DNA of 64,000 nt from an uncultured Thermodesulfobacteriota bacterium (lineage in GTDB: Bacteria > Desulfobacterota > GWC2-55-46 > JADFVP01): assembly GCA_964472295.1 (NCBI GenBank), contig CAYYJQ010000002.1, forward strand, positions 32,074 through 96,073, read 5' to 3'. Below the pieces are notes generated by a model. That model searched no databases. It saw only the letters and a program-made list of their open reading frames with translations, and had not been told where the DNA came from. The translations under genes and the position numbers were made by a program. Below are positions 1,109 through 34,158 of this stretch, in pieces (the stretch's first letter is position 1; each line of letters starts with the position of its first letter).

Positions 1109-3115
1109 TCAGGGTATGGAGTGATGAACTACTGACTCACCCTGTGGCGAAATCTCAACCCAGCTGACGAACCTTCTGTTACCGTTCAATACCAGGACCC
1201 TCGGGTTGAGCACTTTGCTATTAATGGCGTTGCTTAGCTTCACGGGGCTCGTCCAGACCGCCCCGTCATACTTCATGTAATAGACCTCTCCGTGACCGTC
1301 CCTGTAGTCAACCCACGCGAGGTACAGAAAGTTGGCATCTCCGGCGGCGGTGGGATACCAGGCGTTTACGCCGCTTAGAGTGGGATGCACAGGAACAGAC
1401 CACGTAAGCCCGCCATCTACAGACTTGGACATGAATATCTCCCAGGGGCCCTTCCTGTTATCTACAAAAAAGAGATAGGGCTCTGACTTAAATACCGTAA
1501 CAAAAGGGGTGATGGATTGAGCGCGGTCATCGCCGATGTCAACGGGCGCACCCCAGAGAGCAGACTTAGATGGTCTGCTCATAATGTAAACGTCCCAGTC
1601 ACCGGCAACTCCGTGTCTAACAAGTCTCTGATAGGCCATCACCAGGCCCTGCCCCAGATATTCGGCACTAATCCCCGCAGGAAAAGAGATCCCCTCGGCG
1701 ATCACCTCTTTCTGTCTCTTAGCATTAACATGGTAGGCATACTTTGCCTTTATGGCGCCAAACTCCTCTGTATACAGAATCGCTTTGCCTCGGCTGTCCG
1801 AGACCACGATAGGCTCGTAGACCCAGGCCGGTTTGGTGCTGGCCGTCTCTATGACGCTCTTGGCCACTATATGCTCTGAGTCCCATGTCTGGCCAAAATC
1901 AGGGCTGTTACGGTACTTGAGAGACCAGAGCCCGCCCTTAAGGTCTATCCATATCACATGGAGGCCGTCCTTGTTAACAGAAATATCAGAGAACTTTGTC
2001 ATAACGCCACTGGCGCTCAACTGGAGCGACGGAGACCAGGACCTTGTGGCGTCGTCATACATTGAAAAATAGACTTCATAGACCCCGCTACTGTTGTCGC
2101 GCCAGACCTTATAGGCCTTTCCTTCATAGGAAGCAGTACGGAGGTCTCTTAAATGGACATCAAATGTGCCAGAATAGTTAAAAAAATCTACTATGCTGTT
2201 TCCCTCTGCAAAAGGGGTCTCAAACCCCATGAGTTCACCTATCGTTGGGGCGATGTCAACATGATAGTACTGAGTGGAAACTTGCATGTTCGCCGGGGAG
2301 TCAGGTCCGAGTATCAAAAGCATAATATCCCTGTCCCCGTCACACATGCCCGTATGGTTCTGGAAACCACCATGAGCGTTATCATGGCGTCCATGATCTG
2401 TAGTTATGATAAGGGTTGTATTGTCCTTGTAGAAGGGGTCGGTCTGGATATGGTTCCATAACTCGGCCACATAATTGTCGGCTGTCCTGATGGTATTGAC
2501 ATAATTGTTCCAGTCACCGCTGTGACCGCTCAGGTCTACGTCCTCGAAGTTGATAAAGAGGAGCCTCGGATGGTCTGTGTCGAGCACGGAGAGGGCCTTC
2601 TGATAGGTCTGGTCATCAGGTCCTGTTATGGCGAGTTTTGCCGCGTAATCTATCCCGTAGCCCGGGTAGATGCTGTAATTTATCATATTAAGAGAACCTT
2701 TTCCAACGACCGCCCAGGTCTCACGCTGAGTGAGACCGAGGCCCTTTCTGGCGTACTCGAAGATCGTTGGGGTCTCGGGCCGGGCATTCATCCATCTCTC
2801 GGTGTTAGGTGCCCAATGCCATCTACCGGTAATGATATTGTAATGCCCGGGGGTAGTATACGTAGCGAAAACGTTCTTGAAATTTGTAAAAGCAGTCCCC
2901 TGCGGACGGAGCTCGCCCCATATGCGCGGTATATAGGGATGTGTTACTTCTCCCGGGTTAAAGCGGTACTTCAAGGCCTCTGTATTCCTGAGCCCATCAA
3001 TGGTAATGACTATGACGTTTCTGGTGGTATAGGCAAGGGCACGATGCGAAAGCCCCAGGGTGAGGGTCAGGAAGAGAAGAAAGACTGACAAGTATCTCGA
3101 TATGGATAGCCGCAA
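1109..3115 (-). CDS. secreted nucleotide pyrophosphatase/phosphodiesterase (alkaline-phosphatase superfamily, NPP-type) fused to C-terminal BNR/Asp-box repeats
   Basis: N-terminal signal peptide MRLSISRYLSVFLLFLTLTLGLSHRALA. NPP-type core motifs VIVITIDGLR, TTPGHYNIITG and ITTDHGRHDNAHGG. The C-terminal half carries Asp-box repeats SVDGGLTWS and DFGQTWD. Confidence 0.7.
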   Translation of the reverse strand: MRLSISRYLSVFLLFLTLTLGLSHRALAYTTRNVIVITIDGLRNTEALKYRFNPGEVTHPYIPRIWGELRPQGTAFTNFKNVFATYTTPGHYNIITGRWHWAPNTERWMNARPETPTIFEYARKGLGLTQRETWAVVGKGSLNMINYSIYPGYGIDYAAKLAITGPDDQTYQKALSVLDTDHPRLLFINFEDVDLSGHSGDWNNYVNTIRTADNYVAELWNHIQTDPFYKDNTTLIITTDHGRHDNAHGGFQNHTGMCDGDRDIMLLILGPDSPANMQVSTQYYHVDIAPTIGELMGFETPFAEGNSIVDFFNYSGTFDVHLRDLRTASYEGKAYKVWRDNSSGVYEVYFSMYDDATRSWSPSLQLSASGVMTKFSDISVNKDGLHVIWIDLKGGLWSLKYRNSPDFGQTWDSEHIVAKSVIETASTKPAWVYEPIVVSDSRGKAILYTEEFGAIKAKYAYHVNAKRQKEVIAEGISFPAGISAEYLGQGLVMAYQRLVRHGVAGDWDVYIMSRPSKSALWGAPVDIGDDRAQSITPFVTVFKSEPYLFFVDNRKGPWEIFMSKSVDGGLTWSVPVHPTLSGVNAWYPTAAGDANFLYLAWVDYRDGHGEVYYMKYDGAVWTSPVKLSNAINSKVLNPRVLVLNGNRRFVSWVEISPQGESVVHHSIP

Positions 3116-3180: not shown

Positions 3181-3208
3181 CTCCTTAATTCAGGGACGAA
3201 TTAAGGAG
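3181..3208. repeat. hairpin CTCCTTAATTC-AGGGAC-GAATTAAGGAG, member of a motif family also at 59901..59930 and 60042..60069
   Basis: Perfect 11-bp stem. The loop is the reverse complement of the GTCCCG/GTCCCT loops of the copies near the porin gene. It lies about 90 nt 5' of the minus-strand start at 3115. Confidence 0.6.
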
Positions 3209-3294
3209 AAACCAACCTTTAGAGACAGCAAGAGGAGTATGCTTACGAATTAAAGAGTCCTCTATTCATAAAGCCGCCTCCATGCCTTGTTGAA

Positions 3295-5703: not shown

Positions 5704-5726
5704 GATAATCCTTCTCTTACCAGGAC

Positions 5727-7973: not shown

Positions 7974-8042
7974 GAATAAACGAAGACCCATCTTATACAA
8001 CCCCACGAAGTCCACATAATAACCAACAAGGTTATGGAAGGT

Positions 8043-10849: not shown

Positions 10850-12520
10850 CTACAGGTAACCGAGTCCCTTAAGCCTCTCCTCCACCTCTTTGCTGTCCTC
10901 ATCGGAGTACTCGGTAATCTCTCCCTGACCTGAAAATTCCGTGGCCTTGCCCCTGCTCACGGGCCTGCCCTCTGTGAAAGACCGCTCAAAGACCTCCTTC
11001 AGCACCCGCCCATCCATGTCCTCGGGAACGTCCTCACCGAGGGCGTAGAGTATGGTTGGGGCTATGTCCGTAATGCGCGCCCCCTCGACCCTCTCGTCCT
11101 TTTTTATGACAGGACCAAGGGCCATGAAGACCCCGTCGAGCCTGTGAGTTCCTATATGGAGGTAATCCGAGGCGTCTACCTTCTGGTACTCGCCGAAGCA
11201 GTCTCCGCTCTCGCGCCCCGGGGTATTGGATGTATAAAAAGAGTAGTCCTTCCAGCAGATGATAAGGTCCGGCGCTTCCTCGATCATCTCTCCCCTGTAG
11301 AGGTCCTCCTTCCTGTATACCTTCTCGACTATCTTCTCCCCGCTCTCGGGGTCGGTAAGGGCCTCTATCTCCTCGATGCAACGGGACCGCATGTCTTCGT
11401 ACTCCGCACCGGGCTCCACTATCCCGCCGGGCTCCCTGCCCTTGAGGTTTATGAAGATATTCCCGTACATGCCGAAACCATAGGCCTTTGTCCTGGACCA
11501 GTCTATGTCGTTAAAGAACCTGTAGGACTCGACGCGGTCCCGCACGCCGGGAAGAAAGGTCTTCATGAAGTTTTTGGCCTTTCGCGGCAAGAACCTCTTG
11601 GCCATGTAGCGCCCCATCTCAAGGGTCTTGAAGGCCGCGCCGCCGTTACTATCAAGATAGGCGAGATACCCGTTGAGCTCAAGCCATCTATTGAGATAGA
11701 AGAACCTCTTTATGGGGCCAGAGCCATGGTCTGAGATAATGAAAACGGCAGTGTTGCCATGGGCGTCAGCCCTTTCGAGGAGTTTTCCTATCTGCCTGTC
11801 AACATTCACATATGTCTTTACTATGAGGTTCTCGGGGTCCACCCTTCCAGCGGCAAGCTCGCGCTCCAGTTCCAGGGTGAAGTACTGGTGCTGGACCCTG
11901 TCCGTATTGGTATATGCCGTCATGAAGAGGTCTGTTGGGGTCTTGTCCCAGAGGTAGAGGCCTATATCAGTCCGATTCCTGTCCTCGGCCTGTATATCCC
12001 TCCAGAACTTGTCTTCTTCCACCCTCTTTCTCCCTATGGGAGAAGCGAGGTGTATGTAGTAGTTCCCGAAGCGTTCCCTTATCTCGGCGAGGAGTTCCGG
12101 CGGGTATACGGCCCGCTCATCCTCGGCGGGCGAATCCATGCCAGAGAGCATGAACCCATTGACAGGCTCTGGAGGGTAGGTAAAGGGCACGGCGATACAA
12201 CCCACCTTACTGCCCCTGCGGCTCAGGTGCATGAAGATGGATTCCGCGGACCTTCTGGAGGCGTTTACGAACTCTATGCCATAGGACCCCTCGCGGCGCC
12301 TGATAAAATCAAAAACGCCGTGCTTTCCGGCGTTCTTTCCCGTGAAAAAACTACTCCACGCCTGCGGGGTTATGGGGTGTATGGTGGAGCGTAGCGGCCC
12401 GTGCATGCCTTCGGAGAAGAACCTCGCGAAGTTGGGCAGGAGCCCCTTTTCCACAAGAGGGTTTATGACCTCAAAGGTGGCGCCGTCCACGCCGATTACC
12501 ATTACCTTTAGACTCTCCAT
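10850..12520 (-). CDS. cytoplasmic alkaline-phosphatase-superfamily protein, NPP/type-I phosphodiesterase family (paralog 1 of 4)
   Basis: MVIGVDGATFEVINPL...STIHPITPQAWSSFFTGKNAGKHGVFDF, with an NPP-type metal/nucleophile context. No signal peptide. An acidic linker is followed by the C-terminal tail ERLKGLGYL. Confidence 0.75.
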   Translation of the reverse strand: MESLKVMVIGVDGATFEVINPLVEKGLLPNFARFFSEGMHGPLRSTIHPITPQAWSSFFTGKNAGKHGVFDFIRRREGSYGIEFVNASRRSAESIFMHLSRRGSKVGCIAVPFTYPPEPVNGFMLSGMDSPAEDERAVYPPELLAEIRERFGNYYIHLASPIGRKRVEEDKFWRDIQAEDRNRTDIGLYLWDKTPTDLFMTAYTNTDRVQHQYFTLELERELAAGRVDPENLIVKTYVNVDRQIGKLLERADAHGNTAVFIISDHGSGPIKRFFYLNRWLELNGYLAYLDSNGGAAFKTLEMGRYMAKRFLPRKAKNFMKTFLPGVRDRVESYRFFNDIDWSRTKAYGFGMYGNIFINLKGREPGGIVEPGAEYEDMRSRCIEEIEALTDPESGEKIVEKVYRKEDLYRGEMIEEAPDLIICWKDYSFYTSNTPGRESGDCFGEYQKVDASDYLHIGTHRLDGVFMALGPVIKKDERVEGARITDIAPTILYALGEDVPEDMDGRVLKEVFERSFTEGRPVSRGKATEFSGQGEITEYSDEDSKEVEERLKGLGYL

Positions 12521-12531
12521 TAATACCCCTT

Positions 12532-14058
12532 CTATAGATACCCCAGGGCCTTGAGGCGTCCCTTTATCTTATCAACTTCCATGTCCCCTTCGTCGCTGGC
12601 CGCGGCGCTGGTAGGATTGAAGCTCTCTATGTACGATACAGGAAGGTCCTCGGTGAAGATACCCTTAAGGACCTTTCCCGGCATGTCCCTCGCCACCTCC
12701 ACGCCCATGAGGGCAAGAGATGTGGGGGTAATATCGTATATAGAGGCATCGGGCATTGACTTGCCCACCTTGATGCCGGGGCCTGCCGCCATGAATACGC
12801 CCTCGAGTTTGTGGTCCCCCGAGACGTCAGCCTTGTGCGGCGAGAAGAGCCGGGAGAAGGGCACTTCGCCGAACCTCTCCGCCCTAATCACCCGTTGCGG
12901 GTCCATGACAACGCCGGAGAACTGGTCCCCGAGTTTTATCCCGATGAGCGACTCCTCGTAGATAATATCAAAAACCTTCTCGCCAGTATCGGCAAAACGC
13001 ATCTCCTCGACAATCCCGGAGACTTCCTTAAGGAGATCCCTGTCATTAAAGTACATGAAGGTCATGAAACCTATGTTGGCGGGTATTACCTTTTTCTCAA
13101 TGCCAATGAGGCCGAGAAAGACCTCGTGATTCAACCTAAAGGACTCCTTGAGCATTTCCATGGCCTGGGCCCCGTGGTCGGAGATGAGCATTATGGTGGT
13201 ATCGCTCCCGGCGGCGTTCATGAACTCGCCTACTGTCCTGTCGGCCTCGATGTAAGACCGGGGAATTACATCCGCGTACCTTGAAACAAGGTCTCTATCC
13301 ACGTCCTTGAACCTCTCGGGCTCATAGTACTTCCAGTACCTGTGTGCAAGGGCGTCGCAGAGGTGTATGTGAAAGGTGGCGAAATCGGGCCTGTGAAGTC
13401 CATAGAGGTAGGTGAAGAACTCGGAGCATATCCTCAGGTGCAGGGCCGCCTTTTTCCAGTACTTCTCATCATCAGGGGGCCGCCGGACCATGTTATTGGC
13501 AAGAAAGACGAGGCTCTCAAGAAGGGTACGCGCGCTGACGCCGTGTTTCTTGAGTTTCAGCGCATAACCAACGAAGGTGCCCAGCCTTGAGGACCCCTTG
13601 CCCTTTGACTCAAGCTCGGGTTTGTTCTTCTTTCTCTCACCCAATGTGAGTTCCTGCAAAAAGCTGTATTCCTCGGGGTATGTCTCAGGGCCTATGGAAA
13701 AGAGGGACGGTATCATGAAACCATTTACCGGGTAGGGGGGCCAGGTGACAAAACTTCCAAAGACCCCTACCTTATGCCCCTTCTCGCTCAATATGTCCCA
13801 TATGCGCCGCACCTTCACCATGGACGATGAACTTCCGAAGAACTCCACGCCATGCTCATTGGAACTCTTCCCGGAAAAGATGGTAACCCATAGACGCGGC
13901 GAGATAAGGGGGTGCTCGGAGATGAGGTTGCCCGATACACCTCTTCTCATGAGCGCGGCTATATTGGGGAGCTTGCCAGAGGAAATGAGCGGGTTCATTA
14001 CATCCCAGGTGGCCCCATCGAGCTCAATAATCATAAGTTTTGATCGAAGTCCTCTCAT
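12532..14058 (-). CDS. alkaline-phosphatase-superfamily NPP-family protein (paralog 2)
   Basis: The ORF-track frame extends to 14301. The likely start is the Met at 14058 (MRGLRSKLMIIELDGATWDV), with GGTGGAG 5' of it overlapping the stop of the upstream gene. Motif ISPRLWVTIFSGKSSNEHGVEFF. C-terminal tail GRLKALGYL. Confidence 0.7.
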   Translation of the reverse strand: MRGLRSKLMIIELDGATWDVMNPLISSGKLPNIAALMRRGVSGNLISEHPLISPRLWVTIFSGKSSNEHGVEFFGSSSSMVKVRRIWDILSEKGHKVGVFGSFVTWPPYPVNGFMIPSLFSIGPETYPEEYSFLQELTLGERKKNKPELESKGKGSSRLGTFVGYALKLKKHGVSARTLLESLVFLANNMVRRPPDDEKYWKKAALHLRICSEFFTYLYGLHRPDFATFHIHLCDALAHRYWKYYEPERFKDVDRDLVSRYADVIPRSYIEADRTVGEFMNAAGSDTTIMLISDHGAQAMEMLKESFRLNHEVFLGLIGIEKKVIPANIGFMTFMYFNDRDLLKEVSGIVEEMRFADTGEKVFDIIYEESLIGIKLGDQFSGVVMDPQRVIRAERFGEVPFSRLFSPHKADVSGDHKLEGVFMAAGPGIKVGKSMPDASIYDITPTSLALMGVEVARDMPGKVLKGIFTEDLPVSYIESFNPTSAAASDEGDMEVDKIKGRLKALGYL

Positions 14059-14065
14059 CTCCACC

Positions 14066-15595
14066 TCACATGTACCCAAGGCTCTCAAGGCGCTTACGCA
14101 TCTTCGCGTAGTCCACGGGTTCTTCTTTACCGGAGGCCGCCTCTCCGCTCTCGTAACTCTCAACGTAACGTATGGGATGTTCCTTGAGGAAGTCTTTCGT
14201 AAATATGGCCTTGACGGGACTGCCGTCCATGTCCTTTGCAACGGGATAACCTGCAAGGGCAAGTACCGTTGGAGCAACGTCCATGATGGAGGCGTCCCCA
14301 AGGGAGGAGCCTCTCTTTACGCCTTTACCGTGGAAGAGAAAGATGCCGTTATCCTTGTGCACGCCAGTAACACGGAGCTTCCTTGTGGGGAAGAGATCAG
14401 CAAAACGGTAAGTCCCCAAATCAGCGACAGAGACCTCGGTATCGTCGTTGACATCGGTACGCCAGAGCTTCGTAGTGGTCTGTATGCTGAGATACCTCTC
14501 GTACTGGTCCACCTTGAAGATGCTCTCCTTTGTCCCGGCAAAGGCTATCTTCTCGATAACACCCTTGGCACGCGCCATCTCTTCTTTATCCCTCGAGGGA
14601 AAGGTCAGGTAGACCTTTATGCCGAAACGCGCCGGTATGACGCTGTTCTCAAGGCCGAGTATCTTGAGAAACCTCTCTATGTCGAGGATATGGGGCTGAA
14701 TCGCATCGGGCATGGCACCAAAGCCGTGGTCCGATACAAGCACCACGCTTGTATCATCGTCTATCATATCAAGAAAAGCGCCCACGGTCCTGTCGAGCTC
14801 CATATAGGCCTCGGGGATGACCCCGGCAAACTTGGCAGTAGCGGCGTCAGGGGCCTTGGAAAACTTCTCGGGCTCATAAGACTCCCAGTACCTGTGCGAT
14901 ATGGCGTCGCAGAGGTGGACATGGAAGGTTGCAAACTCAGGCCTATGCCTCTTGTAGAGGTTAATAAAGAGCTCGGTAAGCATCCGGTGGTAAATGGTGG
15001 CCTTTCGCCAGTACTTGTCCAAGGGAGTGTGGCTTCCGGCCTTCTCCCAGAGAAAATACTTTAACATGTAGAGAAATGTGCTATTGCTTATCCCATTCCT
15101 CTGCAGACCTTTGACGGCCTTCAATATGGCGAAGAGCTTACCGCTCCTTGAGGCCTTCTGGGTCAACTTCCTTCTTTCCCTCAGCACCACTTCCTGAAAG
15201 GAGCTGTACTCCTCGGGATAAGTCTCCGGCCCCATGGCGAATACGCTCGGTATAATAAAGCCATTTATGGGGTATGGAGGCCAGGTTACGAGGCTTCCCA
15301 CCACCCCCACCTTATTTCCCTGGTCATTAAAGATGTCCCAGAGCCGTTTCTGACGCACGGACTTGGCGGAGTCGCCGAAGAACTCCACTCCGTGTTTTTC
15401 GGAGCTCTTCCCCGTGAAGATGCTCGTCCATATCCTCGGTGAGATCATGGGCTGTTCGGAACGGAGCACCCCCCAGGAACCGCGGTCCATCAAGCCCTTG
15501 ATGTTGGGAAGGCGCCCCTTGTCAACAAGGGGCTTCATCACATCCCATGTACCGCCGTCAACTTCCACTATTAGTATCTTAGAGGCTGGCTTCAT
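14066..15595 (-). CDS. alkaline-phosphatase-superfamily NPP-family protein (paralog 3)
   Basis: ILIVEVDGGTWDV...MISPRIWTSIFTGKSSEKHGVEFF. C-terminal tail KRLESLGYM. Confidence 0.75.
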   Translation of the reverse strand: MKPASKILIVEVDGGTWDVMKPLVDKGRLPNIKGLMDRGSWGVLRSEQPMISPRIWTSIFTGKSSEKHGVEFFGDSAKSVRQKRLWDIFNDQGNKVGVVGSLVTWPPYPINGFIIPSVFAMGPETYPEEYSSFQEVVLRERRKLTQKASRSGKLFAILKAVKGLQRNGISNSTFLYMLKYFLWEKAGSHTPLDKYWRKATIYHRMLTELFINLYKRHRPEFATFHVHLCDAISHRYWESYEPEKFSKAPDAATAKFAGVIPEAYMELDRTVGAFLDMIDDDTSVVLVSDHGFGAMPDAIQPHILDIERFLKILGLENSVIPARFGIKVYLTFPSRDKEEMARAKGVIEKIAFAGTKESIFKVDQYERYLSIQTTTKLWRTDVNDDTEVSVADLGTYRFADLFPTRKLRVTGVHKDNGIFLFHGKGVKRGSSLGDASIMDVAPTVLALAGYPVAKDMDGSPVKAIFTKDFLKEHPIRYVESYESGEAASGKEEPVDYAKMRKRLESLGYM

Positions 15596-17072
15596 CTGTT
15601 ATTTCCCCTCTTGATTTATGTAACGTATACAGAGTCTGCGCCAATGCGATGACCATCCAGAGGTTCTTGTCAAGGAGGCTGTTCGAAGTACAGAGGAAAA
15701 AGCCGTAACCGCTGAGGGTCCCGAAGAGGGCGAGGGCGAGGTACCTGGTCTTGATGTCTCCCGAGGCCCGCATGACCATCCACATGCGCTTCATTGTTAG
15801 AAGATAGAGGGCGGCGAGGATAGATAAACCGAAAATGCCATACTCCGCGGCTATCTGCAGAGGCGTGTTATGTGTCTTCATGACGGTCTCCTGAAAGGCA
15901 TTGGCGGTATGGTGGGCCGCGTAGCGTCTATAGTTGGAGACAAAGCCATCGGGGCCGATGCCGAATATGGGGTTGTCGAAGAACATGGCCAGCCCGATGG
16001 GCACGTGCTCAAGGCGCATGCTGGCGGTCTGCTCTGAGCGCCCCTCTGAAGAATAGAGCCTCTCTGTATTCATCTCCGGCATTGCGACTACAACGACTAA
16101 GAGCAACATGAAAAACCCCGCCACAATGCCGCCGAATATGAGCCACTTCCTGCGGATCTCGATAAATGTCCAGATCACCATGAGCGAAATGGCAAGGCCG
16201 AGAAGCGCGCCTCTTGAGGCGGTCAGCAGGACGTTTATAGAGGCCACGGCAAAGACAATCCCTATGAGGCCTTTTTTGAGTCTGGAGTTCACGGTGAAAA
16301 ACTTGTAGACACAAAGACTCGCTATAACGACCATGTAGATGCCGTGGTAGGGGGCGTCTCCGATGAGGCCGTTGATCCTTCCCGCGTGCACGTTAAGGAG
16401 CACGTCACTTACGTCAGCCATGAAGATTGACCTGTTCCCAAGAAGGGCATAGGGAGACATATTTATCCTCATCTCAAGAAAACCTATAAGCCCGACTATC
16501 AGCCCGCCGGCCAATACCCAGGAAATCGTCTTCTCCATCTGCTCGCGCTTCTTCAAGGCAGTCTGCAGGTAGAAAAAGATAAGCCAGGAGTATATGAAGA
16601 GCTGTATCTGCTTTGCTGCCGCGGCTATACTCTGACTGTTCTTAATAGATATGAACATGAGGATGAGAAAAGCGCTAACAAGGAGATGCTCGGGCCTCAT
16701 GACGAACATCCCTATGAACTCCCGATCCTTCTTAAGGAGCATGACCATGGTCCACATTATAAAACCAGTCATCATTATTACAGTGGATACTGGAAAACCG
16801 CCTGAGGTTACGGGCAGGTTCAAGAACGCGGCGAATCCAAGGGTCAGGACAAAGATGCGGGCAAAGAGGAACTCATGGCGGAGGTAGAATACCGTGTATA
16901 ATACGGGCATTACGAGTGCTACCCCTATTAACGGATTATAACCTACAAGGGCCGCGTAAACAAAGATGAATGCCAGGAGCAGACCAAGAGCGAGCAGTCT
17001 GAAGGCCGTGGCCATCTGGTAACCTGGCTTTTGCATGTTAATCTCGTACATCACGTCTCCTCGGTCCGGCAT
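15579..17072 (-). CDS. polytopic membrane protein, O-antigen ligase/polymerase-like (Wzy_C-type)
   Basis: At least 10 predicted TM segments read by eye, with a large loop. It sits between the paralog genes and overlaps the upstream gene by 17 nt. The family assignment is from the overall pattern only. Confidence 0.45.
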   Translation of the reverse strand: MPDRGDVMYEINMQKPGYQMATAFRLLALGLLLAFIFVYAALVGYNPLIGVALVMPVLYTVFYLRHEFLFARIFVLTLGFAAFLNLPVTSGGFPVSTVIMMTGFIMWTMVMLLKKDREFIGMFVMRPEHLLVSAFLILMFISIKNSQSIAAAAKQIQLFIYSWLIFFYLQTALKKREQMEKTISWVLAGGLIVGLIGFLEMRINMSPYALLGNRSIFMADVSDVLLNVHAGRINGLIGDAPYHGIYMVVIASLCVYKFFTVNSRLKKGLIGIVFAVASINVLLTASRGALLGLAISLMVIWTFIEIRRKWLIFGGIVAGFFMLLLVVVVAMPEMNTERLYSSEGRSEQTASMRLEHVPIGLAMFFDNPIFGIGPDGFVSNYRRYAAHHTANAFQETVMKTHNTPLQIAAEYGIFGLSILAALYLLTMKRMWMVMRASGDIKTRYLALALFGTLSGYGFFLCTSNSLLDKNLWMVIALAQTLYTLHKSRGEITDEASL

Positions 17073-17110
17073 GGGACAGTCCTCTATCTTTCTCCCTCAC
17101 AGACCTTCCC

Positions 17111-18199
17111 CTATACGTAATCGCTGTCGCCAATAGATATGTCCCACATGGCCGCGTCTGTGACATCTACGGGAGGTGCGTCTTCACGCTCCCATCTCAC
17201 AATAAGATTGTGGTTGGTCTCCTTTACGGCAAAGCCCTTGTGACGCATGACTTCCCATGCATGGGAGTCCTCTCTCAACCAGGAGTTGACTGAATCAGCC
17301 TTCTCATCATAGCAGTAATTGACCGCGCGGTTTATCAAGACCCCCGTGACATCTATTTCCGGGTCAGAAAGCAGTTCCAGTATATAGCCACGCCTCATGT
17401 CTTCATTGAGTACGGCTACGACGGTAAAACCAACGACCACGTCGCCCTTCTCTATGGCAAAGACCCGATAATTGACAGAAGGACAGTCTACATAACGCCA
17501 GTTAAGATAAGCTGAGTCCTTGTAGAGCATAACCTTTACACGGGAAGAGACCGACTTGAGGAGCCTGTCGAAGCGCTCGTCGAACCTCTTTATCTCACTT
17601 ATGCGAAAACCCTCGGGCAGGGTTACGTCCGTGGAGTGCACCATGTGCATCAACGCTCCGGAGACCTTGCCGAGCACACGAGCAAGAGGCGCCGGCGCGG
17701 CCTTTTTTCTCAAAAACTCCCCGGGGTCGAGAACCCTCACAAGACGGCGCACAGGAAAAACGCTCTGGAACTTGAGTAGGCGCCTGCTTATCTTAAGCGT
17801 CTTATGAATGGAGTACCCGAAGACAATCTTCACCCCCGCCGGAGAAAGCAACTGTGTGGCGCAGTCGTGCAGTCTGAAGAAGGGCCCACCCTTCTGGAAC
17901 TCCGGAAGTATTACGATATCACAGGTCTGCGCACCGAGGACCTTCTGTCCATCTATCATCAGCCAGGTAGGAATAGCGCCTACCTGTCCCACAACTCTAC
18001 CGCTCTGTGCCTCTACGCCCACAGCCATAATGTGAGCGCCAGCGGGATTGGCATAGTACTTCCACCTCCAGAAGGCCATGTCCTTGTCTACGCCGAAGAC
18101 CGTCTTGTAAATCGCAGGCAGATACTTCAAGTCCCGCTCTTCGAGCTTGCGTATCTCAATATTCTTGAACCTTTCCCTGGCCATACTCCCTCTTATCAC
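17111..18199 (-). CDS. GNAT-fold / FemAB-like acyl(aminoacyl)transferase
   Basis: Roughly 360 aa. The architecture resembles the FemAB/BioF2-like acetyltransferase proteins common in EPS loci. No transmembrane segment. Confidence 0.45.
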   Translation of the reverse strand: MIRGSMARERFKNIEIRKLEERDLKYLPAIYKTVFGVDKDMAFWRWKYYANPAGAHIMAVGVEAQSGRVVGQVGAIPTWLMIDGQKVLGAQTCDIVILPEFQKGGPFFRLHDCATQLLSPAGVKIVFGYSIHKTLKISRRLLKFQSVFPVRRLVRVLDPGEFLRKKAAPAPLARVLGKVSGALMHMVHSTDVTLPEGFRISEIKRFDERFDRLLKSVSSRVKVMLYKDSAYLNWRYVDCPSVNYRVFAIEKGDVVVGFTVVAVLNEDMRRGYILELLSDPEIDVTGVLINRAVNYCYDEKADSVNSWLREDSHAWEVMRHKGFAVKETNHNLIVRWEREDAPPVDVTDAAMWDISIGDSDYV

Positions 18200-19869
18200 A
18201 GGTAACCCAGGCCCTTAAGGCGCTTTGCAACCTCTTCCTCGTCCTCCTCGGAGAGGAAACTGTCAGCCCCGGAATCAATGACAACACCCTCGTCGTCACT
18301 GAAAGCCGCCTTGTGTGATCTCAGGAATCTGCCCTTGATAATGCCATCAAGGGCCTGACCATCCATTCCCCTTGGAACAGGAACTCCAAGAAGTCTTAGA
18401 ATCGTGGGGGCAATGTCCATTATGTGCGCGCCCTCTACAGCGCCCTTCTTTTTCAAGTCTTTTCCGTAGCCGAGCAGAATCCCCTCCATCCGGTGCGTCC
18501 CCCAGCCGCTCGCATAGCTTGCCTTCTCAAAGACATGTCCCTTTAACTGCACGTCCGCCAGATAGGCCCCTCCCTTCAAGAAGAAGATTATATCAGGCGC
18601 ATCGTCAAGGTAGGGGCCGCTGTAGAGTTCCTCCTTCTTGTAGGTATGTGTAACAACGGCCTCGCCCGTGGCGGGGTCCCGCATCTTTTTGAGAGCGGCG
18701 ATGAGGTCGTCCCTGAACTCCTCGTATTCCTGGCCAGGGCTTATCACGCCATCTGGCTCACGTCCCTTGAGGTTAACATAAAAGCCCTGTTCAGTATTGG
18801 AGGCGGAGTAGGCCTTTGTTTTCGACCAGTTAATAACCTGAAGAAAGTCATATGCGTGTATCCTGCCGCCCTTGCCCCTGCTCGGAAGGATTCGTTTGCG
18901 CAGATTATGTTTGTCTATCCTTCTTAAGTACCTCTTCACCTTGAGCACGCTCTGGCGGAAGGCCATATGAGAGAGTTGTTTGCTCTGATTGAGCTCCAGG
19001 TATCCTTGCTGGTGCAGCCACTGGTTGACGTATACCTTCTTTTCAAGAGGACCGAAGCCGTGGTCTGATACCATGAGGATATTGGCCACATCCCCGTACC
19101 TCTCCATGACCTTGCCCATGAATGCGTCGACCATCTGGTAGTACTCTTTTATCTTCTTAACAAAGCCCTTCTCGCGCGTGGTGAGCGAGTCCGGATCCAC
19201 GGGGTGGATGTACTTCCAGAGATAGTGCTGTATGCGGTCGGAACCGATAAATACCGAGATGAAAAGATCCCATTGCTTGTTTTCCATAAGGTACTCGAAG
19301 GCCCGGCATCTCTGCTCCGTGCACTCGATAATCTCATCGAGAAACTTCTCCACACCACGCTCGCCGTAGTACTGCCACCATACATCCATGGTGTATCCGC
19401 CGATCTTGTTCTTCACCTCCTCGAAGAGACCCTCGGGGTATGAGATGTTCGTGGCGTTCCCGGGCGTTAGAAGACCGGTAATTACGAAACCGTCAACCTC
19501 TGGCGGCGGGTACGTTAGCGGCATGTTGACCATGCCCACCTTCATCCCCGCGTCGTTTACGAGTTTCAGTATGGTAGCGCTCCTGATATGCTTGTAGTTG
19601 ACAGGGTGGCGGCCGACCTCGTTCTTGCCGGCCTTTACAAAGTCATAGATGCCGTGCTTTCCGGGGTTCTTCCCTGTCATGAAGGAGACCCACGACGGAC
19701 CGGTAACAGGGGGAATAGATGAACGGAGGTCGCCACGCACCCCTTCTGCGCACATCTTCTGAAGGTTGGGGAGCTCACCCCTCTTCATGTATGGGTCGAG
19801 GGCGTCGAAGGTGGCCCCATCGAGACCTATCACTATAACCTTTTCATTTATCTTCTTTTTCATTACCAA
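18196..19869 (-). CDS. alkaline-phosphatase-superfamily NPP-family protein (paralog 4)
   Basis: VIVIGLDGATFDALDPY...SIPPVTGPSWVSFMTGKNPGKHGIYDF. C-terminal tail KRLKGLGYL. Confidence 0.75.
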   Translation of the reverse strand: MVMKKKINEKVIVIGLDGATFDALDPYMKRGELPNLQKMCAEGVRGDLRSSIPPVTGPSWVSFMTGKNPGKHGIYDFVKAGKNEVGRHPVNYKHIRSATILKLVNDAGMKVGMVNMPLTYPPPEVDGFVITGLLTPGNATNISYPEGLFEEVKNKIGGYTMDVWWQYYGERGVEKFLDEIIECTEQRCRAFEYLMENKQWDLFISVFIGSDRIQHYLWKYIHPVDPDSLTTREKGFVKKIKEYYQMVDAFMGKVMERYGDVANILMVSDHGFGPLEKKVYVNQWLHQQGYLELNQSKQLSHMAFRQSVLKVKRYLRRIDKHNLRKRILPSRGKGGRIHAYDFLQVINWSKTKAYSASNTEQGFYVNLKGREPDGVISPGQEYEEFRDDLIAALKKMRDPATGEAVVTHTYKKEELYSGPYLDDAPDIIFFLKGGAYLADVQLKGHVFEKASYASGWGTHRMEGILLGYGKDLKKKGAVEGAHIMDIAPTILRLLGVPVPRGMDGQALDGIIKGRFLRSHKAAFSDDEGVVIDSGADSFLSEEDEEEVAKRLKGLGYL

Positions 19870-22243: not shown

Positions 22244-23284
22244 TTACTTCTTGTAAAAGCCCAGCTCGGCTGCCCGCTTGTACACCTGTTTACGCTCCTT
22301 CAATATCCTCTCGTAATGCAGGGCATTGGAGGAATCGCACATCCTGCAAGTGGGAAGCCCCGAGAGGTCACGGTCGAGGTGCTTCCTTCTCAGCTCGTTA
22401 AAGGCTTCACTGTGCCAGAGGTCCTCTATACTCGAGTCGTTGAAGTTACCTACAGAGAGGGCGCCGTCTATATCTGCACAACATACGGTGGCGGTCCCGT
22501 CCCAGAATATGAGGAGGCGGTCGAAGAGCTGGTGGCAAGGCCTTACCTTCTCCCTTTCTCCGCGTTCCACGTGCGTAAGGTCCTCGACGTTTCCGTACCT
22601 CCCAACTGGCAGGACGTTTATCTTATCCGCATGAGCGGCCCATAGCTCAAAGACACCGTAGATCTCTTCCTCTGTGTCCTTGCTGAGTATGGTATTAATA
22701 ACCACTCGGGGTTTGTCCCTGCCCATATCGTTACGCATCTTTATCAAGGTCATTATATTATCCCTGACCTGCTCATATTTAGCGTTTACACGGATATTCT
22801 CGTAGGTTTCCCTGCTAGAGCCATCGAAGCTGAAAGTTATGGAGTCAAGCCCTGAATTGATTAGCCCTCTGGCCTTCTCCTCTGTCAAGAGCGTCCCGTT
22901 GCTTGTGAAGTAGACCCATGGCACACCCCTGTCCTTGGCATAGCGGATCATCTCCATGAGCCTGGGGTGCAACATGGACTCACCAAAGCGGTTGAGCTTA
23001 AGAACTGGAACCTTTATCTCCACCGCGTTGTCCACGATCCTCTTGAAGAGCTCCATGCTCATGAATCCGCTCTTACGCGTCATGCCGTCACGATCGCACA
23101 TAACACAGTTGAGGTTACAGACATCGGTAAGCTCGACGTAGACCGTAGGAGGAACTTTGGGAAGGATATGGAATTTTTTCTTTAAGGCCTTGCACGCGGA
23201 GTACAGAGGTTTTGCAAACCTTAGTGCTTTGACTTTTTTTAATTTTTGTATATCGGCAACCATCTCATTAGGCCTCTGATGCAA
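22244..23284 (-). CDS. radical SAM enzyme with C-terminal SPASM/twitch-type auxiliary-cluster domain
   Basis: CNLNCVMC (CX3CX2C) cluster motif. C-terminal Cys-rich region CCADIDG...GLPTCRMC. Confidence 0.8.
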   Translation of the reverse strand: MHQRPNEMVADIQKLKKVKALRFAKPLYSACKALKKKFHILPKVPPTVYVELTDVCNLNCVMCDRDGMTRKSGFMSMELFKRIVDNAVEIKVPVLKLNRFGESMLHPRLMEMIRYAKDRGVPWVYFTSNGTLLTEEKARGLINSGLDSITFSFDGSSRETYENIRVNAKYEQVRDNIMTLIKMRNDMGRDKPRVVINTILSKDTEEEIYGVFELWAAHADKINVLPVGRYGNVEDLTHVERGEREKVRPCHQLFDRLLIFWDGTATVCCADIDGALSVGNFNDSSIEDLWHSEAFNELRRKHLDRDLSGLPTCRMCDSSNALHYERILKERKQVYKRAAELGFYKK

Positions 23285-30385: not shown

Positions 30386-31132
30386 ATGAGCCTATCGGAG
30401 ACCAACAAGAGGATCTGGGACGGATTTGTCCCTGATTACGTTGACAAGAGGGTGGAGAAGATCCTCGACCTCCTGCCCTCTTCCCTTAAGAACCCCCGCT
30501 ATCTTGACATAGGTTGCTCCAACGGGGCGGCGACAATGCTCGTGGCAGGACGCATAGGGGCGGACGTGGTAAAGGGCGTTGACCTTGTGCTCACTGACGA
30601 GGCAATAAAAAGGGGCGTTGACGCCTCAGCCAATGACCTTAACAGCGGCGAGCCGCTACCATTTGACGACAACTCCTTTCACGTCGTAACGTGCATGGAG
30701 ACCCTTGAGCACGTCCATGACACGGACTTCCTCCTCTCGGAACTACGCCGCGTCCTCCAAGACGACGGCACAGCCATAGTGGACATTCCGCGCCTTGACT
30801 CCATGATGAACGTCCTACTCCTCTTCTTCGGTTTTCAGCCCCCTGGAGTTGAGTGCTCGGCAAAAAAAAGATACGGCGCCATAAACGAGGGGAGCATCCT
30901 TACAGGCCATGTATCGTACTTTACAAAGCGGGCCTTCATGGAGATACTCGGGGCCAGCGGCTTCAATGTCCTTGAATTCGCCCAGAGCGGGCAGAAGAGC
31001 GACTGGGAGGCCGTGCAGGCAAAGCTTGGCCGAAGGCCCGGAACCATTCCAAGGCTCCTCTGGACGCTCTACGACCTTATCCCCTTCAAGAAAGACTACA
31101 TGATAGCGAAGATCGGGAAAAAGATTAGATGA
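30386..31132 (+). CDS. class I SAM-dependent methyltransferase
   Basis: Motif I YLDIGCSNGAATMLVAG and an acidic motif II. It overlaps the next gene by 4 nt (ATGA). Confidence 0.7.
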   Translation: MSLSETNKRIWDGFVPDYVDKRVEKILDLLPSSLKNPRYLDIGCSNGAATMLVAGRIGADVVKGVDLVLTDEAIKRGVDASANDLNSGEPLPFDDNSFHVVTCMETLEHVHDTDFLLSELRRVLQDDGTAIVDIPRLDSMMNVLLLFFGFQPPGVECSAKKRYGAINEGSILTGHVSYFTKRAFMEILGASGFNVLEFAQSGQKSDWEAVQAKLGRRPGTIPRLLWTLYDLIPFKKDYMIAKIGKKIR

Positions 31133-34100
31133 AGTCACCCGAGAGGCCCACTTACCCCCATGCAACCGGTCTTGCCGTCTTTATCCTCGCCATAGCCGCG
31201 TACCTTCCCATCTCGCAAGTAGACCTCTCCATGCTCGACGAGGGCGCTCTCCTCTATGTGGCCGAGAGGCTCACAAAAGGGGATGTCCTCTACAGAGACA
31301 TTGTAACAGGCATAATGCCGGGGGTATATTACCTTCAGGCGCTCTTCTTCTCGGTCCTCGGATACTCGGTCATGGCGGGCCGTGTCCTTGCCTGCGCAAC
31401 TCTGGCGCTGAACGCGCTCCTTGTCTATCTTCTCGCCACCCGATTCTTAAGTAAAAAGACCTCAATCGCCCTTGGCCTATTCTTCATCTCCACGGCGCTA
31501 CCGTCCTACTGGATGGCCGGTTACTCGCAGGTATCCCTTACCTTTGTCCTCACAGGCCTCCTCTTTTTTCTCCGTTATCTCGGCTCCAGGGGTCTTGTTG
31601 ACCTTCTCATCTCAGGGGCCGCGGCGGGCATGGCCCTTGTCTTCAAACAGAACTACGGCGTCTTCATTACAGCGGGGCTCGGCATGACGCTTATGGCGAG
31701 GCTGGTCTTAAAGAGAGAATGGCGGCCCGTACTTGTCTTTTCCGCGGCCTTCCTTACCCCTCTTATCGTGATGGTCCTCTATTTCTATTCCACCGGGGCC
31801 CTCCCCAATATGACAGAATATACCTTCTTCTCGCTCTTCAAGAAGGCGGCGGGCGCGTACTACAAGCCCTATCCCCTTCTCTCGCGAACTGACCCCCTGT
31901 TTTTCAACCATGAACTCTACAACTTCATCCCCTTCAGGAACCTCGCCATCTGGTCCTTAAAGGAGGGATATGCCCGCGAGGCCTGGGTGCGCGCCGCCGT
32001 GGTCATTATATACGCCCTCGCGCCCCTTATAATAGCGTCTTCCCTTGTTTACGGGGCCATCGCCCTTGTACGGAGAAGACTCAAGTGGGAAGAGGGCGTC
32101 CTCATGCTCGTATCCTTCCTCCTCTTTCTCGGCGTATTCCCTCGTAGCGACATTCACCACCTTATCTTCATAGCCCCGCCCCTCATGGTCACAGGGGCCA
32201 TGCTCGCGGGCAGGCTACCCGTGGGGGGCAAGGCCCTCATGATCTCAAGGACCTGCGCCCTTGTCATCATGGGTCTTTTCTCGGCCCTCTGCCTTGTCTC
32301 GTCATACATGCCGCTCCTGCACCCAGCGCCAGGCCGCGAAAAAGTAGCCCTCGACATACCAAGGGCAGGGGGGATAAGGGTCGAGAAGCGCGAGGCCAGG
32401 GTAATAAGGGCCGTTACGAATCATATCAGAAAGCATACCCGGCCAGACGAGCCAATCCTCGTGGTGCCAACAGGGGCCATGTACTATTTTCTCGCGGGCA
32501 GGAGGAGCGTGGTCCCATACCCCCTCATAATGCCCGGCGCCATGGACGAGGCCGTTGTAATCAAGGCCATGGAGAAGGCCTCGCTCAGATACATAATCTA
32601 CTCGGACATGAGCTTTGACGAGGAGACCCTCAGCCGGCACATGCCCCTTATCCATGATTACATACAAAAGAACTACAGTATAGACCCCTCCTATCCATTA
32701 AGAGAGACGGGCGGGAATGTCTATGTCCTGAAGAGGGGAAGGCCCGGAGAAGAAATAACCCCCCTCGATAGCGAGGCCGGTGAGGCCCTCGTGCATACGC
32801 GCGGCAGACATCTGCCCGTGCTCCTTGACCTTGCAGGGGGCCTTGAGAAGGCCCGTAGCGGCGTAATCCTCGGGAGCGGCAGGGGCGTGCCGCTCTTCCG
32901 GGAAAATCAGGTAACGCGCAACGCCTGGCTCCTGAAGGACGCCATACTACAGGAACCGGGCCGTGGCTGGTCCAAGGTATACACCGCCTTCAGCCTCCAC
33001 GTCCCGCGCTCCTCTGGACTCAGGTTCTCCATAGGCCAGTCCCCTGTGGTATGGTCCCCATGGTTCGGCGACGGGGCCCTCTTCGAGGTCTTTTTATATG
33101 ATAAAAGCGAGGGGAGACTCGTGAGGCTCTTCTCACGCTACCTTGACCCCAAGAACAACCTTAAGGAACGAAGGTGGTTCACCTATCTTGCGGGTTTGAA
33201 AAAATACGGCGGTCGTGATTTAATAATATACTTTGTAACATCTGGCGGGCCGCGGCTCAACCTCACCCTGGGAGAGATGAACAGGTGGAGGCAGATTGAC
33301 ATGGCCGGCTGGGGCGCCCCGGCAATCGTGGGCATTGGCAAGGTAGAGGGCTCCAATGGCGCCATGGTCTCTGGCAAGGCACAGAAGGTCCTCCTGCCGC
33401 CAATGGCCGCGCGGGAGATGGCGCGCTTTGACGACATATCCTTTATACTGGAAGAAAAAAAGAAGTACCCCGGTGATTATGACGTGCTCCTCACGCTGGG
33501 GAGGATATATGAGAGGGCGGGCAGAAAAGATAAGGCAATCAGGGAGTACAGGGCCGCACTTAAGTCCTACGCCCGGGGAAGCGAGGCAAGGAACCTCCTT
33601 TCGAGATATTATATAAGGAAGGGCCAGCATAAAAAGGCCGAGGGCCTTCTAATTGAGGGCCTCGGCCTTGACCGGACGGACGCGAAGCTCAATATGACCA
33701 TGGCGGACCTTTACAGGCGCAGGGGAAAATATGAGATGGCCGTCATGAGTTACGGCCAGGTTCTTCGCGCACGGCCAGGTGACGAGTGGGCTCTCCTTGG
33801 GCTGGCCCGCACCTACCTCGCCGAAAAAAAACCCGGGAAGGCCATGTCCGAGGCCAATAAGGCCCTTGACGCGCACCCCGGGAGCACGGCGGCCCTGATA
33901 ATGATTGGCGATGCCTACAGGCTCAAGAAAGAATGGAAAAGGGCCGAAAAAACTTACAGGAAGGCCTTGAGGACAAATCCGGACAGCCCGGCCCTGAAAC
34001 TCAAACTCGCCCTCTCGCTTAAGGCCATGGGCAGAACTGAAGAGGCCCTGAAGGCTTACGGCGAGGCCCTCACGGCAAGGGGGGCCAGCGATGCCCTCAA

Positions 34101-34158
34101 GAAGATGGCGAAAAAGGAAATATCCTCCATCTTGAGACAAAAGAAGGAACAGAGATAA
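31129..34158 (+). CDS. GT-C-fold membrane glycosyltransferase (ArnT/PMT-like, polyprenyl-P-sugar dependent) with periplasmic DUF and C-terminal TPR repeats
   Basis: Roughly 12 N-terminal TM helices. The central soluble domain FEVFLYDKSEGRLVRLFSRYLDPKNNLKERRWF...IYFVTSGGPRL is shared with the protein at 39648..43298. The C-terminal 250 aa are TPR repeats. Confidence 0.65.
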   Translation: MKSPERPTYPHATGLAVFILAIAAYLPISQVDLSMLDEGALLYVAERLTKGDVLYRDIVTGIMPGVYYLQALFFSVLGYSVMAGRVLACATLALNALLVYLLATRFLSKKTSIALGLFFISTALPSYWMAGYSQVSLTFVLTGLLFFLRYLGSRGLVDLLISGAAAGMALVFKQNYGVFITAGLGMTLMARLVLKREWRPVLVFSAAFLTPLIVMVLYFYSTGALPNMTEYTFFSLFKKAAGAYYKPYPLLSRTDPLFFNHELYNFIPFRNLAIWSLKEGYAREAWVRAAVVIIYALAPLIIASSLVYGAIALVRRRLKWEEGVLMLVSFLLFLGVFPRSDIHHLIFIAPPLMVTGAMLAGRLPVGGKALMISRTCALVIMGLFSALCLVSSYMPLLHPAPGREKVALDIPRAGGIRVEKREARVIRAVTNHIRKHTRPDEPILVVPTGAMYYFLAGRRSVVPYPLIMPGAMDEAVVIKAMEKASLRYIIYSDMSFDEETLSRHMPLIHDYIQKNYSIDPSYPLRETGGNVYVLKRGRPGEEITPLDSEAGEALVHTRGRHLPVLLDLAGGLEKARSGVILGSGRGVPLFRENQVTRNAWLLKDAILQEPGRGWSKVYTAFSLHVPRSSGLRFSIGQSPVVWSPWFGDGALFEVFLYDKSEGRLVRLFSRYLDPKNNLKERRWFTYLAGLKKYGGRDLIIYFVTSGGPRLNLTLGEMNRWRQIDMAGWGAPAIVGIGKVEGSNGAMVSGKAQKVLLPPMAAREMARFDDISFILEEKKKYPGDYDVLLTLGRIYERAGRKDKAIREYRAALKSYARGSEARNLLSRYYIRKGQHKKAEGLLIEGLGLDRTDAKLNMTMADLYRRRGKYEMAVMSYGQVLRARPGDEWALLGLARTYLAEKKPGKAMSEANKALDAHPGSTAALIMIGDAYRLKKEWKRAEKTYRKALRTNPDSPALKLKLALSLKAMGRTEEALKAYGEALTARGASDALKKMAKKEISSILRQKKEQR

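Follow-up and report, generated by a model that had tools for sequence, protein, structure and literature searches.

Five enzymes encoded among the polysaccharide biosynthesis genes of one bacterium, drawn from two branches of the alkaline phosphatase (AlkP) superfamily, end in nearly the same short peptide, which raises the question of what such a shared ending does. The enzymes lie in a stretch of 64,000 nucleotides (positions 32,074 to 96,073 of contig CAYYJQ010000002.1) from an uncultured Thermodesulfobacteriota bacterium, and this whole stretch is referred to as the window. Four of them are NPP-type paralogs (paralogs 1 to 4), and the fifth is a 1216-aa fusion of a GT4 glycosyltransferase with a sulfatase-type AlkP domain (GT4-AlkP fusion). 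Their C-termini, of the form (R/K)L(K/E)xLGY(L/M), are termed LGY tails in this study, and the same peptide at any position in a protein is termed the LGY motif. A sequence-only reading of the window had taken the tails for docking peptides and had proposed as their receptor the TPR domain of a GT-C membrane protein encoded in the same locus.

In this study, homologue alignments, family and profile searches, AlphaFold models and gene neighbourhoods were used to analyze the LGY motif with respect to its distribution, position, structure and possible partners. The tail proved to be an undescribed portable motif on thousands of related enzymes from many phyla, and it is not special to the window locus. 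LGY tags are carried overwhelmingly by Thr/Ser-nucleophile enzymes of the AlkP superfamily, namely a COG3379-like clade of PF01663 and a sulfatase-like clade of PF00884, and the tagged enzymes typically occur as sets of 2-4 paralogs within polysaccharide biosynthesis loci. The reading that we favour, with a probability of about 0.45, is that the tail is a trans-acting protein-protein association tag, whose most economical receptor would be the AlkP-type catalytic domain itself. No Pfam or NCBIfam model covers the motif and no description of it was found in the searchable literature; bacterial short linear motifs are far less catalogued than eukaryotic ones, and what is new here is the LGY motif as a candidate member of that class.

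Conservation and distribution of the LGY motif

Homologue counts rest on the 120 matches listed for each of three queries, which were paralog 1, paralog 3 and the sulfatase-type domain of the fusion. The motif was present in 117 of the 120 homologues listed for paralog 1 (the other 3 look truncated), in 110 of the 120 listed for paralog 3, among which 91 carried it at the C-terminus and 19 internally, and in 88 of the 120 listed for the sulfatase-type domain. In each of the alignments A1, A2 and A3, positions L(-5), L(-2), G(-1) and Y(0) never vary, a conservation equal to that of the catalytic residues, and the consensus reads [DE]-x3-[VIL]-x-E-[RK]-L-[KR]-[GSA]-L-G-Y-[LIVM]-[ED]?. Judged from these alignments, the motif is family-wide, and strong purifying selection acts on it. 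A few relatives of paralog 3 (P0334, P0346, P0350, P0351 and P0358) end instead in a basic amphipathic sequence of equal length (IKKLKILKKL, IKELKTLGKI and IKNLKLKGKI are examples), in which the hydrophobic spacing is kept and the Tyr is lost.

A scan of one genome from each species yielded no fewer than 583 stretches encoding relatives, distributed among Verrucomicrobiota, Chloroflexota, Planctomycetota, Acidobacteriota, Desulfobacterota, Zixibacteria, Omnitrophota, Nitrospinota and other phyla, and 80 loci were kept for neighbourhood work. A total of 113 tail-bearing NPP open reading frames (ORFs) were found in 77 of these 80 loci, with 2-4 each in 25 loci. Neighbourhoods were described from Pfam-annotated contexts; tblastn with the window proteins is too insensitive for glycosyltransferase and flippase genes. 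The loci of four distant NPP homologues are all of the Wzx/Wzy type and contain 2-4 PF01663 paralogs with the tail, and exported sulfatase-type carriers occur in tandem, four at L088 and, beside PMT_2 and YfhO genes, three of four at L090. A polysaccharide context recurs at L084-L088 and L090, and one carrier, at L089, is found outside such a locus.

The sequence-only reading had itself named an outcome that would tell against it, namely that the tail is an ordinary element of PF01663 proteins generally, and this is largely what the counts give, the tail being usual in the PF01663 clade and in the Thr-nucleophile PF00884 clade. For the window locus, the tail is real but ordinary for its family, with nothing locus-specific about it and no pointer to the TPR protein. 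The tails are not chance resemblances, because L..LGY. occurs only 6 times in a six-frame scan of the 64 kb, 5 of these being the extreme C-termini of the tail-bearing ORFs, and because a looser C-terminal pattern was found in only 2 of about 2,700 non-AlkP ORFs of the 80 other loci.

Position, compartment and portability of the motif

The motif does not need to be terminal. Among 316 copies, the protein ends at Y+1 or earlier in 111, at Y+2 in 131 and at Y+3 to Y+5 in 6, and more than 5 residues follow the Tyr in 68, the number of trailing residues ranging from 0 to more than 40. Proteins with an internal copy numbered 49 in the sulfatase-type branch and 19 in PF01663, the majority being TPR fusions, and 18 of the 19 internal motifs of paralog 3 homologues precede more than 40 residues (TPR repeats). 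In the TPR fusions the motif stands exactly between the catalytic domain and the repeats and is still invariant (alignment A2). Sec, Tat or lipoprotein (lipobox) signals are found on many carriers and are absent from the five of the window, by which the motif is predicted to occur on either side of the membrane.

A profile built from the 36-residue tail was searched against 1.84 billion representatives. The matches comprised C-termini of AlkP proteins, membrane PF01663 proteins with a motif at both ends, two non-AlkP envelope proteins and also PG_binding_1 repeat proteins; 39 of the 56 matches longer than 220 aa were AlkP-domain proteins. The double-ended membrane PF01663 family, of about 630-680 aa, was represented by at least 12 clusters (P0362, P0371, P0375, P0376, P0378, P0383, P0384, P0394, P0404, P0426, P0441 and P0507). 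Its members carry D(A/E)LR.KL(R/K)ALGYLD near the N-terminus (residues ~14-22), ahead of the transmembrane (TM) segments, of which a crude hydropathy scan gave 4-7, and RERLRSLGYVQ at the C-terminus. Both non-AlkP proteins carry tandem units of an acidic linker plus the motif: P0377 (1339 aa; BlaR1-type M56, beta-helix and HEAT) has seven copies about 28 residues apart at residues 436-610, and P0387 (1125 aa; anti-sigma-like N-terminus and VWA/YfbK_C) has three copies at residues 158, 397 and 611.

Solved sulfatase structures stop before the tail, at the SGSH_C helix, and a PDB sequence search with the full proteins and with their last 120 residues found no solved relative with the tail. Because of the positional freedom, the arrays in non-AlkP proteins, the low AlphaFold confidence described below and the solved folds that end before the motif, the tail is taken to behave as a portable short linear motif acting in trans, as far as alignments and models allow. 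It has what defines that class, being a conserved peptide in a low-confidence segment, independent of position and present in unrelated proteins. The proposal that a conserved peptide at the end of a disordered acidic linker is laid out like a docking motif agrees with both the low confidence and the portability.

Predicted structure of the tail

Packing of the tail was judged from the per-residue confidence (pLDDT) and the secondary structure of AlphaFold models. In the model of paralog 1, which averages 90.9, the tail helix (residues 540-552) has a pLDDT of 61-71, and in the model of a sulfatase-TPR fusion the motif region (L424/L427/G428/Y429) has a pLDDT of 48-50 between domains above 90; in these models the motif is thus placed without confident packing on its own protein. 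Locally, the tail is likely a two-to-three-turn amphipathic helix capped by Gly-Tyr, with the two Leu buried.

The tail resembles part of a known domain. An alignment of the tail profile (A3) with PG_binding_1 (PF01471) units (A4) by hhalign gave a probability of 92% and an E-value of 5.7e-7 over 18 columns, in which the tail corresponds to positions 5-22 of the units (V..LQ.RLk.LGY), that is, to helix 1 and the LGY turn, and PG_binding_1 repeat proteins were among the best matches of the tail profile. The remaining ~40 residues of the ~57-residue three-helix domain (DG.FG..T..AV..FQ...) are absent from the tail, and no window protein has a PF01471 match (Pfam, E<0.01). The tail as a peptidoglycan-binding domain was rejected, as only 18 columns align and the full three-helix domain is missing, and the resemblance to helix 1 may be convergent. 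A repeat of about 66-72 aa, RSPAQVAERLSALGYSPPD, which looks actinobacterial (P0366, P0369, P0462 and P0469), also has the helix-LGY element.

Families and active sites of the tail-bearing enzymes

The assignment of the enzymes to PF01663 and PF00884, for which the sequence-only reading had suggested a Pfam search, was borne out: the NPP paralogs scored 76-150 bits and the 1216-aa protein scored about 128 bits for PF00884, the gathering thresholds being 23 bits for PF01663 and 25 bits for PF00884. The nucleophile context read from the letters, (T/S)Px..W....(T/S)GK....HG, is present in all four paralogs, and the metal ligands are kept in all of them (D12, D207/H211, D264/H265 and H459 in paralog 1). 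In alignment A1, D12, D207, H211, D264, H265 and H459 are invariant, with T/S at the nucleophile position. Judged from nucleophile and metal ligands, the four paralogs appear catalytically intact. The AlphaFold2 model of paralog 1 (mean pLDDT 90.9, predicted TM-score 0.92) has the AlkP-superfamily core in NPP topology, and its best PDB matches by Foldseek were ENPP5, PhnA and the Xanthomonas NPP (5ven, 1ei6 and 2gsn; probability 1.00, E ~1e-14). No sequence relative of the NPP paralogs was found in the PDB, no specific model or equivalog was found among their NCBIfam matches, and nothing relevant on COG3379 was found in the searchable literature.

Residues 789-1173 of the 1216-aa protein matched PF00884 (127.7 bits) and SGSH_C (60.8 bits). 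This part had been called an unrelated sulfatase-type domain; its PF00884 membership stands, but it belongs to the same superfamily as NPP and is not a true sulfatase. The formylglycine position reads TIPSH, with a Thr nucleophile, where sulfatases have C/S-x-P-x-R, and Thr occupies this position in 119 of its 120 nearest homologues listed, mostly as T-x-P-x-H. From these residues the domain is grouped with the Thr-nucleophile phospho-ester enzymes of PF00884, and its classification as a sulfatase should be avoided, because the C/S-x-P-x-R signature is lacking. Names such as arylsulfatase and choline-sulfatase on many of its 120 nearest homologues are probably wrong; its best NCBIfam matches (choline-sulfatase, arylsulfatase and PehA) were all far under the cut-off. 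As a rule for annotation, tail-bearing "sulfatases" of the examined set have a Thr nucleophile and are therefore phospho-ester enzymes. The five enzymes are new members of known families, and databases call them "alkaline phosphatase family protein" or "sulfatase".

The TPR domain of the GT-C protein

In the model of the sequence-only reading, the tails dock on the TPR domain of the GT-C protein and so recruit the enzymes to the machinery for polymer export and modification. Several observations speak for such a link. The annotated ORFs of the window yielded no second TPR protein, as the reading had noted; only TPR is repeatedly found as a fused domain immediately behind the motif, and this in both AlkP branches, a Rosetta-stone link between TPRs and these enzymes; and the GT-C/TPR protein shares an operon and a domain of about 120 residues with the tail-bearing GT4-AlkP fusion. 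However, the expected co-occurrence of tail and partner did not appear in the neighbourhoods compared. Searches by tblastn with three parts of the protein found no GT-C/TPR relative within 10 kb of the carriers in any of the 80 loci, and a TPR hidden Markov model, which recovered the window GT-C/TPR protein at 1e-35 as a positive control, found any TPR ORF within 10 kb in only about 15 of 87 loci, the types being heterogeneous. No TPR gene is present in the seven Pfam-annotated contexts.

The topology does not fit either. Hydropathy and the positive-inside rule give the GT-C protein a cytoplasmic N-terminus and about 11 TM segments, by which its TPR domain is predicted to be periplasmic, and the five carriers are predicted to be cytoplasmic; a periplasmic C-terminal region is the usual GT-C arrangement. 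The tail is also found on lipoprotein, Sec- and Tat-exported enzymes. Where a TPR is already fused, the motif is kept and its low pLDDT predicts no docking in cis, and the motif may be internal or followed by further residues, unlike ligands of the TPR carboxylate clamp. With no co-occurrence within 10 kb, a probably periplasmic TPR and no need for a free C-terminus, docking of the tails on this TPR is very improbable.

The unannotated domain common to the two proteins (aa ~514-624 of the GT4-AlkP fusion and aa ~612-733 of the PMT_2/TPR protein; BLASTP 35% identity, E 1e-17) has the pattern GDG..FEV...DPK.N...R.WF...AGW..PA.V and no Pfam match, and a weaker second copy may lie at aa ~730-760 of the fusion. 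A role in polymer binding is possible, in which case one operon would supply such a module to both a cytoplasmic and a probably periplasmic protein.

Comparison with known systems

The window paralogs are like members of the NPP family (Xanthomonas NPP, ENPP1-7 and PhnA) in fold, Pfam score, the Thr/Ser nucleophile in T-x-P...T-G...H-G and the two-metal ligands. They differ in having no signal peptide, which makes them cytoplasmic, and paralog 1 is longer by about 170 residues, most of them in inserted helices (166-193 and 294-336); no solved relative has the acidic linker or the LGY tail. LtaS, EptA/MCR-1, OpgB and YejM/PbgA resemble the sulfatase-type domain of the window in the PF00884 fold with Thr replacing the formylglycine precursor, and also in their association with the modification of envelope glycans or lipids. 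These enzymes have N-terminal TM anchors and act in the periplasm; in the window, by contrast, the domain makes up the C-terminal end of a GT4 fusion that is cytoplasmic.

The tail itself has the layout, a short and highly conserved hydrophobic peptide behind an acidic or flexible tether, of the SSB C-terminal tail, the FtsZ C-terminal peptide, the EEVD-TPR system of Hsp70/90, PTS1-Pex5 and HbYX/GQYL. As with these terminal docking peptides, it is common to divergent paralogs and is predicted with low structural confidence. The LGY motif differs from them in that it needs neither a free C-terminus nor a fixed distance, being found in internal, N-terminal and arrayed copies, and in that its carriers lie on both sides of the membrane. 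A signal of the EEVD-TPR or PTS1 type was rejected, as a free carboxylate at a fixed register is not kept by the 68 of 316 copies that run more than 5 residues past the Tyr. An EEVD-type TPR ligand was likewise rejected, as the cognate receptor does not co-occur within 10 kb (0 of 80 loci for GT-C/TPR relatives; about 15 of 87 for any TPR ORF). HbYX/GQYL was rejected as well: the residue before the Tyr is always Gly, no more than 111 of 316 copies have the Tyr in penultimate position, and no carrier is an ATPase or an activator.

Possible function of the motif and rival explanations

As an association tag working in trans, the tail would tie the paralogous modifying enzymes of one locus into homo- or hetero-oligomers at the site of polymer assembly. 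The AlkP-type domain would be the most economical receptor because it is the only component common to cytoplasmic and periplasmic carriers. In other AlkP-superfamily enzymes, such as those of the PMH and choline-sulfatase structures, C-terminal arms mediate oligomerisation, which provides an analogy. Most likely the enzymes themselves would act in the cytoplasm on intermediates that are lipid-linked or nucleotide-activated, either as phosphodiesterases or as transferases of phospho-substituents; the polymer-decorating role suggested for them is reasonable, as catalytic residues appear intact and relatives occur in polysaccharide loci in four distant NPP contexts.

Several points weigh against the association tag or its AlkP receptor. 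The NPP tail (pLDDT ~70) may pack weakly in cis, and AlphaFold monomer models, which often place an element confidently in cis where the receptor is the protein's own domain, did not place the tail so. A small structural cap would likewise be expected to keep L/L/G/Y unchanged, and the likeness to PG_binding_1 could mean that part of the apparent portability belongs to a generic helix-Gly-Tyr structural motif. The motif arrays of the two non-AlkP proteins fit a third-party receptor equally well.

A third party is in fact nearly as likely a receptor as the AlkP domain. As an account of its own, docking in trans on a distinct partner that is widely conserved and not of the AlkP type, whether a component of polysaccharide assembly or adaptors of the TPR type, with the multi-copy arrays of sensor-like proteins as scaffolds or decoys, seems doubtful. 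The layout of a short linear motif and its low AlphaFold confidence, the arrays of P0377 and P0387, the motif at the N-terminus of membrane PF01663 proteins and the conserved polysaccharide context of the NPP-type carriers would all agree with it; yet carriers lie on both sides of the membrane and therefore one single partner cannot serve all of them, no gene co-occurs consistently with the carriers except generic Wzx/Wzy and glycosyltransferase genes, and the carrier at L089 is not in a polysaccharide locus. If the partner lay within the same chain, the tail would be a structural or regulatory element that caps its own catalytic domain or closes over it as an autoinhibitory lid. The L/L/G/Y invariance, which matches that of the catalytic residues, the near-constant joining to AlkP domains (39 of the 56 longer profile matches) and a helix of intermediate confidence, rather than disorder, in the NPP tail suit a cis element, which is nevertheless unlikely, given the pLDDT of 48-50 in the fusion model, N-terminal copies separated from the domain by TM segments, arrays in proteins without an AlkP domain and solved relatives that are complete folds without the tail.

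Two further explanations address the helix and the Tyr. The tail could be an amphipathic membrane-targeting helix, as in MinD or FtsA, that recruits soluble enzymes to the lipid-linked substrates of one leaflet or the other; an amphipathic pattern is formed by the hydrophobic residues at -9, -5, -2 and +1, the mechanism is workable on both sides of the membrane and rare variants have basic amphipathic ends such as IKKLKILKKL. We give this little credence, since the tails are net acidic (-1 to -7 in the last 40 aa), the P0377 arrays are strongly acidic, an invariant Gly-Tyr is atypical for generic membrane-targeting helices and the length is only about 12 residues. Least probable of all is that the Tyr is phosphorylated by the Wzc-like bacterial tyrosine kinase (BY-kinase) of the locus as a means of regulating the enzymes: the Tyr is invariant within an acidic flexible tail, and both the window and L085-L087 contain Wzz/GNVR and P-loop (AAA_31/CbiA) genes, but a cytoplasmic kinase cannot reach exported carriers, the Wzc-like protein of the window lacks a C-terminal Tyr cluster, and the conserved L..LG context suggests packing and not a kinase site.

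A broader form of the association-tag reading, in which LGY is an unrecognised bacterial interaction motif that assembles AlkP-type glycan-modifying enzymes on both sides of the membrane, with the arrays as scaffolds or regulators and the fused TPRs as parts of the same system, is held tentatively, as possible rather than probable. If LGY is an interaction tag, tail peptides could serve as bait for the organisation of enzymes around Wzx/Wzy- and ABC-type assembly lines, and the motif would be an entry to the function of the large COG3379-like family.

Genes of the window

The coordinates of the window features are listed in Table 1. All five tail-bearing ORFs are present on the strands reported by the sequence-only reading, and their C-termini read exactly as it had claimed. 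Its other statements about the proteins also hold: none of the five carriers has a signal peptide, the first beta-strand and the metal-binding Asp (xxDGxT) lying within about 12 residues of the start; the linkers are acidic, with 8-11 D/E and a net charge of -1 to -7 in the last 40 residues; and the translation of the secreted NPP-BNR protein confirms that the tail is missing there. The mechanical ORF of paralog 2 extends to 14301 and its true start is the ATG at 14058 (JGI gene call, 508 aa); the start of paralog 4 is probably the ATG at 19863. Upstream genes abut or overlap the carrier genes, with gaps of -17 to +38 bp.

Table 1. Features of the 64-kb window discussed in the text (window coordinates)
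Feature	Position	Strand	Description
NPP-type AlkP paralog 1	10850..12520	-	556 aa; subfamily A; predicted cytoplasmic; nucleophile T51; PF01663 136.4 bits
Tail of paralog 1, ERLKGLGYL	10853-10879	-	
NPP-type AlkP paralog 2	12532..14058	-	508 aa; subfamily B; Ser nucleophile (ISPRLW); PF01663 76.5 bits
Tail of paralog 2, GRLKALGYL	12535-12561	-	
NPP-type AlkP paralog 3	14066..15595	-	509 aa; subfamily B; PF01663 89.2 bits
Tail of paralog 3, KRLESLGYM	14069-14095	-	
NPP-type AlkP paralog 4	18196..19869	-	557 aa; subfamily A; PF01663 150.5 bits
Tail of paralog 4, KRLKGLGYL	18199-18225	-	
GT4-AlkP fusion	39648..43298	+	1216 aa; predicted cytoplasmic; GT4, then unannotated middle domain, then PF00884/SGSH_C AlkP domain (41958-43298)
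Tail of GT4-AlkP fusion, KKLEALGYL	43269-43295	+	
Secreted AlkP-BNR fusion	1109..3115	-	No tail (ends ...VVHHSIP*); N-terminal signal-like segment; Pfam; negative control within the window
PMT_2 (GT-C) membrane protein	31129..34158	+	C-terminal TPR domain; Pfam
Wzy_C polymerase/ligase-like gene	15579-17072	-	Between paralogs 3 and 4; Pfam
GNAT-like gene (Acetyltransf_9)	17111-18199	-	Between paralogs 3 and 4; Pfam
Radical SAM/SPASM protein	22244-23284	-	Inside the Wzx/Wzy operon
Wzz/GNVR/AAA_31 (Wzc-like) protein	23314-25350	-	Ends ...KRAEYVPEILQSFLD; no C-terminal tyrosine cluster

The four paralogs had been described as a tandem expansion. Four paralogs are indeed present, but the expansion is not recent: paralogs 1 and 4 are 36% identical, paralogs 2 and 3 are 45% identical, and identity between the pairs is about 26%, so that recent tandem duplication was ruled out by the range of 26-45%. 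The tails are identical to each other at 20-28 of 36 nt and their codons differ at synonymous sites, by which gene conversion or a DNA repeat as the source of the like tails was ruled out. Because the paralogs are old and the tail codons have diverged synonymously, the shared peptide is considered to have been kept by selection. Contigs from other samples suggest that relatives of subfamilies A and B sit together.

Neighbouring genes

The window contains a Wzx/Wzy-type locus on the minus strand, with genes for Bac_transf, Poly_export, Wzz/GNVR/P-loop, MurJ-like flippase, WecG, Wzy_C, GNAT, GT2 and GT4 proteins, and an ABC-type locus on the plus strand, with genes for a methyltransferase, PMT_2+TPR, Wzm/Wzt, glycosyltransferases, the GT4-AlkP fusion and YfhO. 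An Acetyltransf_9 gene of about 355-362 aa was found again at L085 (1320-2399) and L087 (5031-6095), in distant phyla, together with tail-bearing PF01663 paralogs, Wzy_C and a flippase, which suggests that GNAT, Wzy_C, flippase and tail-bearing PF01663 genes form a conserved functional cassette. Genes for a sulfotransferase (L085) and a PAPS-reductase (L086) adjoin NPP-type genes.

The best NCBIfam matches of the radical SAM/SPASM protein were metalloenzyme and tungsten-cofactor maturase-like models, all far under the cut-off, and a radical SAM gene is also present at L087. A role as sulfatase maturase of the anSME type is unlikely, because no AlkP enzyme here has Cys/Ser-x-P-x-R. The Wzc-like protein may not be a canonical autophosphorylating BY-kinase.

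Upstream of the locus, three probably secreted proteins are encoded on the minus strand at 1109-8015, namely the AlkP-BNR fusion, a Sortilin/BNR protein and an FG-GAP/ASPIC protein, and at L085 a BNR protein and a DSE-like_N/heparinase II/III-like protein are encoded near an NPP gene. These secreted BNR and heparinase-like neighbours hint at a set of proteins for the degradation or remodelling of the polymer.

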